From assembly GCF_058153355.1 (NCBI RefSeq), contig NZ_CM177019.1: a stretch of DNA of 64,000 nucleotides. One strand, written 5' to 3'. A program made the translations under genes and the position numbers. Below are positions 32,833 through 52,863 of the stretch, piece by piece (positions within the stretch are counted from its first letter, which is position 1; each line of letters starts with the position of its first letter). The notes under the pieces were generated by a model. The model did not search any database and was not told where the DNA came from. It was given only the letters and a program-made list of their open reading frames with translations.

Positions 32833-35117
32833 TGTTTTTCCTCAAGCCGGTTACGCGCTTCACTGCGAATTTGCCGCGTTGCCCCGGTTTTCACTAAATC
32901 ACGTAACTGCGAAAGATCGGGCTGATCGACAAATAAGATTAATGATGGATCCTCTTTTAACCACGCCGTTTTCACATCGGCAGCCAACTGTGGATTATTA
33001 ATAGCCAGCGCCCGATCCTGTGACTCAGTCAATGTCGTTAACAAAGAGGCTGGGGTATGTACATTGCGCAACGCCGTCTGCCGCAAATGATCATTGTGAC
33101 TTTTCAGCAATCCGCACCACCATTCATCATCTGATTTATCTTTTATCGTATCCAGCTCCGCAAAAATATCGCTTTCCTCATGATTCCAGCGGAGTAATCC
33201 TCTTTCACTTTGTCTACGGGTGCTATTTTTCATACTGACAACAGACAACGCCCAGTCGGAGTTAAAACGATACTGTTGATCGAGTTTGTTGATAATTCCG
33301 GAGGGTAAATCTTCATTATCAAATAGCTGGTTTCGCATCCGATAGCGGTATTCAGCAGGTAAATAAACCAGTAAATCGATGGCATTATTAAACATCTCTT
33401 CGTCAATAATACCATTATCAATCAGCGCCAGCTGTACTTCGTAGGCTTGCTCTTGATCTTCTTGCCGTTTACTCATCATTAATTTTAAGGTGTGTTGCCA
33501 TAATTGTTTCTTATACTCCAGAGGTAATAATTTATCGCGTGCCAGCTCATACCAGATGCTGGGAATGTCATGCTGATTCAGTAGATAACTAATCACTTCC
33601 TTCGAGGTCAGATAACGCATGCCGTCACGTAAGTTGTGCACATCTTCTTTTGCCAAAGTCAGTTGACGCGACTCCGGCAAAGCGACCAATAACGCCTTCA
33701 CGATATTTTTATTTTCTTTATTATCCAGATACATTTGTTCTGCGATACGTTCAACATCCTCTGTACTCAGGGTCGCTGACAGTTGGGTGATTTTTAGTTC
33801 AGTAAGCGTCCGGGCTAATGCTTGACGAACTTTCAGCGATTTATCTTTACTCAACAACACCGCTTGTTGTGCGGTTAAATCGGCTCCGGTAATTCTTTCG
33901 CGTAACTCCGGATCTTCGCTATTTATCAATTCATCAACCACTGCAGTTGGAACCAGCCAGGCGTAATCGTAATGGCTGATTAATGTCTTGCGCACACTGA
34001 GAAAAGGGCTTTGACTTAACGACACAACAATATCAGGAGAAAGATTATCCTGTCTGGCCTGCTCCAGCTGTATGCTCTCGACGGGTACAGACATTAATTT
34101 TTTATTCACTTCGGCGGATATATTGCTGTTTTTAACCAGTCCTCTGGCAACAGCTTCATCTTTAATTAATTCATCGGTAAGCAAATGCATGTGTTGAGCA
34201 GGCCAGGACTGCGCCATTGATTCACGCGTCTGGTCATCAGGGTGCTGTAACAATTGCAGCATAACAGCGGGTGACAAACGCTCTATATGTGTCAGAAAAC
34301 GTGCCATCAGTGGATCTTCATGCTTTATTTTATCCGCAGGGAAATTGTCGAGTTTACCCGCTTCAATCCACTGTAATTTCTCATTAATTTTAGAATCAGC
34401 TTTATCTCGAAAAACAGGTAACCCCTGAATTATATTATCTGCGACGCTATCATAGTCAGGATACGCATTAAAAATATTATCAGTTTCGATTTCAGTATGA
34501 TCGTAAAAGTCGGGATTCACCAGTGAATAGGCTTTCTTAATATTCTCATCCCAGCTATATCCTTCACCACTTGCATCTTCATTGATATAAAATTCAGCTT
34601 TGATGGACTCAAATTGCGTTGCTTTATCGGAAACAATAATTCCTCGTGCGCTAATTCCCTTCATCACTTCAAAATTATGATCATTATAATCAGCATAAAC
34701 TAAACCTTTTGCTGTCATCTGCCCTTTGACATACGCGAAATCATGATTAATAAAGTTATCGACAATAACATTACCTAGTACAATCAGATGACCATTACCT
34801 GACAGATAATCATCATAATCGCCGGAAATCGTTAAATTACCGTTCACCACCAGTTTATGCTGATTGCTGAAGTTAGTGGGTAATGATAGGTCACCATTAT
34901 GATAATACCAGCGGATATTATCTTTTAGCATATAAGCAGCTTCCATACTATCGTTGGTTGCCGCTTTAACCACGTTGCGCTCATCTGCCGTCATAAGATG
35001 AAAGTCAGAGGTGATAAGGTCCTCGCTACTGATCCACTCTGTGGCACATGCATTGCCAGTCATAAAAAATACGACCATACAGATGACCAATATATTAATT
35101 CTATTCATAATCTTCAC
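32829..35117 (-). CDS. Hypothetical exported protein (762 aa) with N-terminal signal peptide
   Basis: ORF track; N-terminus [25 protein letters not shown] is a Sec-type signal peptide with an A-x-A site; N-terminal Asn/Gly/Asp-rich region followed by a long helical region; not recognised; no such genes recalled between rdgC and ppnP in K-12. Confidence 0.7.
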
Positions 35118-42066: not shown

Positions 42067-42327
42067 TTACTGACGAGGATGCTTCAATAACTTCTTTACA
42101 TAATCGCGCAGCAGCTCCGTATCGTCGTCAGGAATGCTGGCATCGGGCTTTACCTCGTAAAGTGCCCCCTCTACCTGATCAATCAACCGCTGTTGGTCAT
42201 TTTGCGCCATATTACGAAGCATTGCAGTGACGATAATCTCCAGTGCTTCTACCTGCGCGCACAGTTCTTTCGACTCTTCTTCTTTTTGGGCAAGCTTAAA
42301 TAACAACTCAGCAATGAGATTTTTCAT
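42067..42327 (-). CDS. iraP: Anti-adaptor protein IraP
   Basis: 86-aa ORF ([40 protein letters not shown]...); recognised IraP. Confidence 0.9.
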
Positions 42328-42789
42328 GTCTGTATTTCCTTATCCAAAGTATGGAGAAGTTAACATTATGCTTCACAACTTCATAGTGTCTGGAGGTAGT
42401 ATTTTTATGACGAATGAAATACTTTGCGCAAATATTTTTTCCATATTTATCAGCGAAACGTTTCTCTTATTTAAATAAGTAACCATACAAAGTATAGGTT
42501 TTTAATTATCAACCTTTATTATAAGTAAAAGTTATGAAATATATTCTCTTTGCTAACTTATAATTAAGAGAAAAAAACTCACTGCATGGCCATTTAAACC
42601 AGGAATAAATTAGCTTCCCGTTCATCATTTTTGTGATCTTGCGCACATCTTTGAGATAACGCACTTTCTTCACCAGTACGTTGCACACTTTGTCAGTAGA
42701 AGATTGCAACATTCTGTCAGAAGGCCGCGAATCCCCCGTTTTGTCGTGGTAATGTATGCACTTTGTGTTAGACGGGATAGGTTTTCAAG

Positions 42790-47582: not shown

Positions 47583-48740
47583 TTGAAACGTAGTCTGCTT
47601 TTTTCTGCCGTGCTTTGTGCGGCGTTATTGACCCCCGTCCATGCGGCGCAGCCGATCACTGAACCGGAGTTCGCCTCTGATATTGTCGATCGTTATGCCG
47701 ATCATATTTTTTATGGCAGTGGTGCCACGGGGATGGCGCTGGTTGTTATCGACGGTAACCAGCGCGTCTTTCGCAGTTATGGCGAAACGCGCCCGGGTAA
47801 TAACGTTCGCCCGCAGCTGGATTCGGTCGTGCGTATTGCTTCGCTCACCAAGCTAATGACCAGTGAGTTGCTGGTGAAATTGCTCGACCAGGGGACCGTG
47901 AAGTTAAACGATCCGCTAAGTAAATATGCTCCACCAGGCGCACGCGTGCCGACTTACAATGGCACGCCTATTACCCTGGTGAATCTGGCAACCCATACCA
48001 GTGCCTTGCCACGTGAACAGCCGGGAGGCGCGGCACATCGTCCAGTGTTTGTCTGGCCAACGCGCGAGCAACGCTGGAAATACCTTTCTACGGCGAAGCT
48101 GAAAGCCGCGCCAGGCAGTCAGGCGGCATATTCTAACCTTGCGTTCGACCTGCTGGCAGATGCACTGGCGAATGCTTCCGGCAAGCCTTATACCCAGTTG
48201 TTTGAAGAGCAGATTACCCGTCCATTGGGGATGAAAGACACCACCTACACCCCCTCGCCGGACCAGTGCCGCCGTTTAATGGTTGCAGAGCGCGGTGCCA
48301 GTCCATGCAATAACACGCTGGCGGCAATTGGCAGCGGCGGAGTCTATTCCACGCCTGGCGATATGATGCGCTGGATGCAGCAGTATTTGTCATCTGATTT
48401 TTATCAGCGCAGTAATCAGGCGGATCGCATGCAGACGTTGATTTATCAGCGCGCGCAGTTTACGAAAGTGATTGGCATGGATGTCCCCGGCAAAGCGGAT
48501 GCGCTTGGTTTAGGCTGGGTATATATGGCCCCGAAAGAGGGTCGTCCGGGGATTATTCAGAAGACAGGTGGTGGTGGCGGTTTCATTACCTATATGGCGA
48601 TGATCCCGCAGAAGAATATTGGCGCGTTTGTGGTGGTTACTCGTTCGCCATTGACGCGCTTTAAAAATATGAGCGATGGCATCAATGACCTGGTGACCGA
48701 ACTGAGCGGGAATAAACCGTTGGTCATCCCCGCGTCCTGA
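47583..48740 (+). CDS. ampH: Class C beta-lactamase-like penicillin-binding protein AmpH
   Basis: 385-aa ORF (TTG-initiated frame MKRSLLFSAVLCAALLTPVHA signal peptide); SxxK motif (SLTK). Confidence 0.9.
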   Translation: MKRSLLFSAVLCAALLTPVHAAQPITEPEFASDIVDRYADHIFYGSGATGMALVVIDGNQRVFRSYGETRPGNNVRPQLDSVVRIASLTKLMTSELLVKLLDQGTVKLNDPLSKYAPPGARVPTYNGTPITLVNLATHTSALPREQPGGAAHRPVFVWPTREQRWKYLSTAKLKAAPGSQAAYSNLAFDLLADALANASGKPYTQLFEEQITRPLGMKDTTYTPSPDQCRRLMVAERGASPCNNTLAAIGSGGVYSTPGDMMRWMQQYLSSDFYQRSNQADRMQTLIYQRAQFTKVIGMDVPGKADALGLGWVYMAPKEGRPGIIQKTGGGGGFITYMAMIPQKNIGAFVVVTRSPLTRFKNMSDGINDLVTELSGNKPLVIPAS

Positions 48741-49427
<687 letters not shown>

Positions 49428-49449
49428 TATTTCTTCGGAGTGAAGAATA

Positions 49450-52338
<2,889 letters not shown>

Positions 52339-52863
52339 TTGTCATCCCTCCTCAGGGACGTAATAAGTTGATCCATCAATTATCAATGCATAGAAAACAT
52401 ATTATGTTTCGCGTTTACGATTATGCGGCGTTATAGAGGAATGGTTCAATTATTCTTTCCCCTAAGTCCGATTGCGGACATATATAAAGCACGTGAACAC
52501 ACATAAAGAAATAAATAACAAAAACACATTATTTCAATAGGTTAATGAAAGCGCCAATTTTAAAACATAGACCATAAAAATATAAAAACACCAAACCAGA
52601 CAAATAATGTATCAATAAGCAATGAACTTTACGTTATTCACTTTTTGAAAACGTCACCAAATCCCCAAAAACAATAATCTATAGCTATAAATAAAAATTA
52701 AAAATATTTTCAATGAATATAAATTTATTGCTATTTCTATTACAAAGATGTCCTGACCTCTCATTCATTCTCTTCTTATCAACATCACGACAACTTTCGT
52801 AAAACATCCCCACCCTGCTTCAGGTATACTATGCCCCTCGATTCCACAAACATCAGGCAGACC

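Follow-up and report, generated by a model that had tools for sequence, protein, structure and literature searches.

The AT-rich region between an autotransporter adhesin gene and hemB in Escherichia coli as a putative divergent control region, probably silenced by H-NS and StpA

It is probable that, in the 64,000-nucleotide stretch of DNA analysed here (referred to as the window), H-NS, with StpA as a back-up, coats the AT-rich DNA between an autotransporter adhesin gene and hemB, so that the adhesin promoter is near-silent in culture and the hemB promoter escapes. For this locus, the silencing of an AT-rich adhesin promoter by H-NS has been published before, and the finding is counted as known because the region is allelic with one reported to be repressed by H-NS. 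Beyond the literature reached is a cross-genus footprint of the intergenic DNA, which fixes the positions of a predicted adhesin promoter and of an invariant leader. Mildly novel is a spacer of free sequence that appears constrained in its composition, length and strand bias, and that has deep alleles in E. coli. Adhesins of the EhaB/UpaC/SeaB group promote the formation of biofilms and binding to matrix, and their use as vaccine antigens has been suggested; it is of practical use to know the positions of promoter, leader and silenced DNA because these adhesins are hardly expressed in culture.

Gene order and base composition

The window represents a chromosome segment of the Escherichia coli type, in which the K-12 genes run in reverse order: ampH, iprA (yaiV), the autotransporter gene (minus strand), hemB (plus strand) and tauDCBA. 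The autotransporter gene sits at the locus of the K-12 pseudogene yaiT, EHEC ehaB and CFT073 c0478, and its product carries a Pfam Autotransporter beta-domain and an autochaperone. The features that define the locus are as follows.

48741..49409, minus strand: iprA/yaiV, a winged-helix regulator gene (Pfam HTH_46) downstream of the adhesin gene
49450..52338, minus strand: intact autotransporter gene, 962 aa, type Va, allelic with YaiT/EhaB/UpaC
52339..52863, no strand: whole intergenic region, 525 bp, GC 0.328
52864..53838, plus strand: hemB (porphobilinogen synthase), 324 aa

With the start of the adhesin ORF at 52338 (minus strand) and the hemB ATG at 52864, the divergent, non-coding gap between yaiT/ehaB/upaC (leftward) and hemB (rightward) extends from 52339 to 52863. 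The sequence-only reading had given exactly these coordinates, and the ORF boundaries agree with them. That reading had also described the gap as strongly AT-rich and as one of the longest non-coding stretches of the window. Both descriptions hold: in a crude ORF map, only one ORF-free gap is longer and none is richer in AT, and its GC content, compared with 0.501 for the window, falls within the lowest 1% of equal-sized windows. What had been overlooked is the active hemB promoter and the deeply conserved adhesin leader within the gap.

The GC content drops to 0.21–0.27 in the centre of the gap. The adhesin gene is itself AT-rich over roughly its first 450 bp (GC 0.375–0.415), and the AT-rich zone as a whole spans approximately 51900 to 52790.

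Short motifs and predicted curvature

The A-tracts and repeated ATAAA/AAATA motifs to which the sequence-only reading had drawn attention are denser here than elsewhere: relative to the rest of the window, the motifs are about 5 times and the A/T tracts of at least 4 nt about 2.4 times as dense. When the gap was compared with its own shuffles, neither was in excess (P of about 0.06 for the motifs and about 0.35 for the tracts). As their counts do not exceed those of the shuffled gap, the repeated motifs reflect base composition; thus, the enrichment relative to the window stands, and a special abundance of the motifs does not.

The curvature was computed using a dinucleotide wedge model; as a check, phased A-tracts were found to bend and unphased A-tracts to remain straight in the model, as expected. 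The predicted curvature of the gap has a mean of 7.2 degrees per turn, corresponding to the 82nd percentile, and a maximum of 14.3, which lies below the 99th percentile of the window (16.1). A computed curvature profile had been proposed earlier as a check on silencing; the profile obtained is average to moderate, with no marked bend, and although the gap is AT-rich, its predicted curvature is not notable. As a separate observation, iprA is AT-rich as well (GC 0.36–0.41) and holds three of the top-1% predicted curvature peaks of the window.

The high-affinity H-NS 10-mer TCGATAAATT has no good match in the gap, where just three matches with two mismatches were found. These results are compatible with an AT-richness that has no regulatory purpose, in which the gap would be unconstrained DNA at the equilibrium of mutational bias and any effect of H-NS and StpA would be weak, incidental or indirect. 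The motif and tract counts accounted for by composition, the lack of a nucleation motif and the lack of marked curvature are all in line with such drift, which is, as a whole, judged rather unlikely for the reasons given below together with the spacer and the published expression data.

Cross-genus footprint of the promoters

For comparison, the gap was taken from nine other E. coli genomes, and species-representative genomes were scanned with the barrel domain, which yielded 49 further species with a divergent hemB-autotransporter pair. These comprise three additional Escherichia and 46 species of other genera, which include Citrobacter, Enterobacter, Lelliottia, Kluyvera, Trabulsiella and Pseudocitrobacter. 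The footprint alignment consists of 59 sequences, 13 from Escherichia and 46 from species of other genera. The gap is 371–617 bp long in all 49 species, and its GC content is 0.31–0.38 in all but one of them, the exception having 0.44. Across the 13 Escherichia sequences the length is 522–525 bp despite about 40% substitution. In a test for a xenogeneic island, the locus proved to be neither a recent acquisition nor patchy, being found in 5423 of 5426 E. coli genomes and in the 49 species. It is not a xenogeneic island because many enterobacterial genera have the arrangement, with its AT-rich gap, as an ancestral feature.

The conserved and predicted features at the two edges of the gap are listed below.

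52339..52413, minus strand: predicted adhesin 5' leader, about 75 nt, from the cross-genus footprint
52343..52360, minus strand: predicted, invariant hairpin CGUCCCU[GAGG]AGGGAUG around the Shine-Dalgarno (SD) sequence
52368..52379, minus strand: second GGA motif, in the loop of UUGA[UGGA]UCAA, a candidate upstream CsrA site
52420..52449, minus strand: predicted adhesin sigma-70 promoter, from a consensus scan and the cross-genus footprint
52789..52805, plus strand: block GACAACTTTCGTAAAAC, conserved across genera, approximately −48 to −32 relative to the hemB start site
52825..52830, plus strand: hemB −10 hexamer TATACT, conserved, 6 nt upstream of the start site (TSS) mapped in K-12
52837..52863, plus strand: hemB leader, 27 nt, its start placed by homology to the K-12 TSS

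On the adhesin side, the predicted promoter consists of the −35 hexamer TTGAAC (52449–52444) and the −10 hexamer CATAAT (52425–52420), separated by an 18-nt spacer on the minus strand. In the 59-sequence alignment, AATAATTGAAC and GCATAAT show little or no variation; a single species (L081) deviates in the −35 region, at two positions. The 18 nt between the hexamers vary freely in sequence, and an alignment gap occurs there in just one species (L036). Fixed hexamers combined with a variable 18-nt spacer form the pattern expected of a sigma-70 promoter, and the adhesin start site would lie at about 52413, judging from the position of the −10 hexamer. Promoter-like hexamer pairs are not enriched in the gap, where 5 were found and 3.7 ± 2.1 were expected.

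In K-12, where yaiT is split by IS3, the predicted promoter hexamers and the leader are identical to those of the window. The supplement of PMC3415461 has no entry for an adhesin TSS in wild-type K-12 between the hemB TSS and the next row listed, which falls inside the IS3 in yaiT.

On the hemB side, the block GACAACTTTCGTAAAAC, the TATACT hexamer and the last 15–25 nt are conserved in the 59-sequence alignment. The hemB TSS in K-12 is at 388978 (NC_000913.2), with 39 reads and a 27-nt leader (PMC3415461 supplement), and transfer of this site by alignment places the hemB start site of the window at 52837. The hemB promoter has a good −10 hexamer and is without a recognisable −35 hexamer at normal spacing; for this reason, the block GACAACTTTCGTAAAAC may be an activator site, or else an atypical −35 region.

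The adhesin leader

The last 45 nt before the adhesin ATG (52339–52383) are 83–97% conserved across the 46 non-Escherichia species, more than any other part of the gap; the stretch between these and the −10 hexamer is variable. Two hairpins are predicted, with loops some 20 nt from each other that each carry a GGA motif; one of these motifs overlaps the SD sequence, and the second is retained as GAYGGAY in nearly all species. Two GGA motifs in loops, one of them at the SD sequence, are the textbook layout of a CsrA-repressed leader, of which glgC and pgaA are examples, and CsrA opposes biofilm formation. The predicted arrangement resembles the glgC and pgaA leaders also in that it precedes a biofilm-promoting surface factor.

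These features raise the possibility that the main switch is post-transcriptional, in which case CsrA bound to the two GGA hairpins of the leader would block translation and H-NS would form a second layer only. However, any strong SD sequence includes GGA. The SD hairpin has five of its seven pairs invariant among 36 distinct sequences and shows one compensatory change; the near-absence of variation means that a constraint on structure and a constraint on sequence are not separable there. Covariation in the adhesin leader is essentially absent, with too little variation across the 36 distinct sequences, and the fold has a z-score of just −1.84.

The published data on CsrA point in both directions. 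In Supplementary Data 2 of PMC5694010, yaiT is flagged as a sequence-predicted CsrA target (Kulkarni 2014), and a csrA mutant has 1.5-fold more ribosome footprints on it (log2 0.63, significant), so that it is scored as repressed by CsrA. Against this, and unlike the glgC and pgaA leaders, yaiT is negative for CsrA in CLIP-seq, where a peak is absent; neither co-purification nor cross-linking was seen in three other datasets, and the change in translation efficiency in the csrA mutant is not significant (PMC5694010). A literature search for CsrA together with the adhesin gene by name found no paper linking the two. CsrA control of the leader is a reasonable hypothesis, not a result, and that it is the main switch of the adhesin gene is considered unlikely.

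The leader also contains the conserved palindrome TTGAT-CC-ATCAA (52368–52379), which could be read as the binding site of a local regulator. The candidate would be IprA, bound either to the palindrome or upstream of the −35 hexamer and acting as an anti-silencer or as a roadblock repressor. We know of no IprA binding site. IprA carries a DNA-binding domain (Pfam HTH_46), and its gene is syntenic with hemB and the adhesin gene wherever the adhesin gene occurs (PMC13248724). Yet this reasoning is purely positional, an RNA hairpin would explain the bases of the palindrome just as well, and no experiment on the point was found in the literature. That a local regulator of this kind sets adhesin expression is regarded as very unlikely.

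Variation of the AT-rich spacer

Between the two conserved edges lies a spacer of about 300 bp with the following parts.

52489..52788, no strand: AT-rich spacer, GC 0.26; presumed H-NS/StpA-binding DNA, a role drawn from the literature
52488..52680, no strand: hypervariable sub-core, 193 bp, with at least five allele families in Escherichia at 59–83% identity
52681..52788, no strand: most AT-rich block, GC about 0.22, 87–95% conserved within Escherichia only and not in other genera

In the 59-sequence alignment, no sequence conservation of the spacer (52489–52788) was found across genera. The spacer is nevertheless AT-rich throughout, with a mean GC content of 0.29 over the 59 sequences, and it shows a strand bias: on the hemB-sense strand, A exceeds T in 58 of the 59 sequences and C exceeds G in 54. 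The bias is far stronger than replication skew, and there is no known transcript in the spacer.

The lack of cross-genus sequence conservation is what unconstrained drift to AT-richness would produce. However, drift alone predicts neither the fixed length in the 13 Escherichia sequences despite extensive substitution nor the strand asymmetry, and the retention of the gap in 49 species within the range of lengths given above also argues against it. A long AT-rich gap kept in 49 species is unlikely to be useless spacer, which a deletion-prone genome would be expected to lose.

Within Escherichia, the core differs between families to the extent given for the sub-core, compared with an identity of 96–97.5% for hemB and 99% for the barrel. 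The families, among which are the window/CFT073, K-12, O157 and EC10 types, are in the sub-core almost free of indels, their transition/transversion ratio is near 1, and the substitutions between them show no codon periodicity. The gap of the window is 100% identical to that of CFT073 over the 149 bp next to the adhesin gene, which include the adhesin promoter and leader, 93% identical in the core and 92% identical in the hemB-proximal part. Compared with the K-12 core allele, the identity of the window core is 61–62%. The corresponding gap occupies 464953–465477 in CFT073 and 389728–390250 in MG1655 (NC_000913.3).

Among 5426 complete E. coli genomes, 14 match the window core at 95–99% and none at 99% or above; 1508 match at 90–95% (the ST131/CFT073 type), 41 at 80–90% and 1093 at 60–80%, and in about 2770 genomes, approximately half, there is no blastn match to it. 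The spacer allele and the passenger allele are uncoupled, as a CFT073-type spacer is here combined with a passenger whose identity to each of the nine sampled alleles is about 70%.

In E. coli, intergenic regulatory regions are reported to be switched horizontally (Oren et al., 2014). The present locus is similar in that the core of the gap is far more diverged between strains than the conserved segments flanking it and is uncoupled from the passenger allele. It differs in that both conserved promoters are unswitched, so that the exchange concerns the spacer alone, and in that the length of the spacer is constant. The spacer might be an ancient, sequence-free cassette, constrained in length and composition and swappable, that is under diversifying or balancing selection and tunes H-NS/StpA silencing above a CsrA-controlled leader. 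This combined reading is tentative and seems quite improbable as a whole. If it were true, the allele families would recombine independently of the passenger domain of the adhesin. Should strains with different spacer alleles differ in adhesin expression, they would be a natural case of switching of a regulatory region.

Silencing by H-NS and StpA

Allsopp et al. (2012) are reported to have found that H-NS represses upaC. A passage of PMC5012682, a paper by the group that characterised UpaC (Schembri lab, citing Allsopp 2012), lists UpaC among the UPEC autotransporters that are repressed by H-NS.

For K-12, RNA-seq data of MG1655 are available in Supplementary Table 1 of PMC12460168. The yaiT gene has about 177 normalised counts in the wild type and about 256 without hns (log2FC 0.54, 1.45-fold); without stpA, the log2FC is −0.44. 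Without both hns and stpA, the counts reach about 1900, which corresponds to a log2FC of 3.52, that is, about 11-fold derepression (p = 1.8e-192). hemB, with about 6000 counts in K-12, changes by +0.26 without hns and by −1.1 in the double mutant (PMC12460168). Netropsin, which activated the vast majority of horizontally transferred genes in that study, has no significant effect on yaiT (log2FC −0.15), and the rows listed for yaiT are without the hairpin (HIN) or horizontally-transferred-gene (HTG) flag (PMC12460168).

Taken with the report on upaC, these data indicate that repression by proteins of the H-NS family at this locus is real and that H-NS and StpA act redundantly in K-12. The deletion of hns alone is weak in K-12, and the effect in the double mutant could therefore be indirect.

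The gene-averaged H-NS ChIP-seq signals (IP/input) are 6.71 for c0478 in CFT073 and 4.67 for yaiT in MG1655, compared with 0.5–1 for ordinary genes (PMC9765446). The strongly bound gene of the neighbourhood is iprA, with 34 in CFT073 and 27.5 in MG1655, and hemB has 2.2 and 1.5, respectively (PMC9765446). Neither c0478 nor yaiT is flagged as H-NS bound, and the lowest flagged values among the rows listed are 7.72 (CFT073) and 5.42 (MG1655). The mildly raised signal of hemB is as expected for spill-over from the gap. As the ChIP values are averages over genes, the signal of the adhesin gene could also have spread from iprA at its far end. Direct occupancy of the gap by H-NS is plausible.

The expression and ChIP data all stem from strains other than the source strain, those of K-12 from a different core allele. 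That H-NS and StpA act directly on the gap DNA in the source strain, with the spacer as a binding platform, is what we infer from these orthologous loci, and a modest or partly indirect effect of H-NS would account for the published data just as well. The ChIP signal under the authors' cut-off (PMC9765446), the absence of an effect of netropsin and the small change upon deletion of hns alone would fit AT-rich drift with an incidental effect of the silencers. On the other side, the derepression in the hns stpA double mutant and the H-NS repression listed for upaC in the cited passage argue against drift.

The preferred reading remains that of silencing through the AT-rich DNA, and the following mechanism may be proposed for it. 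The gap would act as a divergent control region, with the hemB promoter on the right, the adhesin promoter and leader on the left, and the spacer between them. Filaments of H-NS and StpA would form on the unbroken run of AT-rich DNA that reaches from the spacer through the adhesin promoter to about 450 bp inside the gene. RNA polymerase would thereby be shut out of the TTGAAC/CATAAT promoter or trapped on it, while the hemB promoter, on the right where the GC content is higher, stays active.

The sequence-only reading had proposed, from a composition typical of H-NS-silenced promoters of surface-protein genes, that the gap could control yaiT through a silencing/anti-silencing switch. The silencing half of this proposal agrees with the published repression of upaC and with the K-12 double mutant. 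The anti-silencing half is left without a partner, because no counter-silencer at the adhesin gene was found in the literature searches. A search pairing yaiT with H-NS found no full text, a search for c0478 returned unrelated papers only, and a paper on excludons mentions yaiT-ytiB and not hemB-yaiT.

When the locus is compared with known systems, the closest is the upaC (c0478) region of CFT073, which has the same locus, the same family of gap alleles and the same order of hemB, autotransporter gene and iprA; in CFT073, c0478 is located at 465477–468465 and adjoins hemB (c0477) (PMC9765446 Data set S1). It differs in the passenger, to which that of the window has about 70% nucleotide identity, and in the length of the protein, which is 962 aa in the window and 995 aa in CFT073. 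The yaiT region of K-12 shares the locus, the predicted promoter hexamers and the leader, and shows H-NS/StpA-dependent silencing, but it has a diverged core and an IS3-split gene. The locus further resembles cases of xenogeneic silencing of AT-rich, horizontally acquired genes, among them those of other E. coli autotransporters such as UpaH and UpaG/EhaG, in its AT-rich promoter, its low expression in culture and its derepression without the silencers, as seen for the orthologous alleles. Unlike those cases, it is ancestral, its ChIP signal is sub-threshold, netropsin is without effect, and no counter-silencer is known.

Search for hidden elements in the gap

The unusual length of the gap and the hypervariable core could also be explained if the gap hides a small RNA, a small protein gene, the remnant of a mobile element or an invertible switch for phase variation, and another E. 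coli autotransporter, UpaE, is under the control of an invertible element (PMC6083910). The evidence from the gap itself is against each of these. At a permissive threshold, Rfam gave no match in the gap; the sole match, snoZ196 (E = 0.64), lies outside the gap and far under the gathering score. No intrinsic terminators were found within the gap, and the hemB TSS is the sole TSS among the rows listed for the K-12 gap (PMC3415461). Several small ORFs of 20–42 aa are present, none of which is conserved, and there is no codon periodicity.

Tandem repeats were not found in the gap by TRF, and its direct and inverted repeats are few, short and imperfect. An invertible promoter of the fimS/ipuS type was rejected as a candidate: no repeats flank the promoter, and all the alleles have the same orientation. 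Short, imperfect repeats alone imply that there is no invertible switch, and a hidden element of any of these kinds is extremely unlikely.

The adhesin gene and the strain background

According to PMC8281228, EhaB is also called UpaC and is found in two forms. In the window, the barrel of the autotransporter is 99% identical to those of other E. coli, and the passenger (50401–52240) has about 70% DNA identity to the nine sampled alleles, which include those of K-12, CFT073 and O157. On the basis of this comparison, the passenger may be an undescribed variant.

The flanking genes within 47583–57292 of the window are 94–97.5% identical to those of most of the sampled E. coli, with values of 96–97.5% for hemB and 94–96.6% for tauB and tauC. 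The nearest complete genome, MFDS1022581, is a mosaic with 96–99% identity. The lineage of the strain seems to be sparsely sampled. Further strongly AT-rich stretches of the window are located at 808–2347, 16287–16614, 34271–34434 and 42125–42375, the first of which is the most AT-rich part of the window, with a GC content that reaches 0.27.
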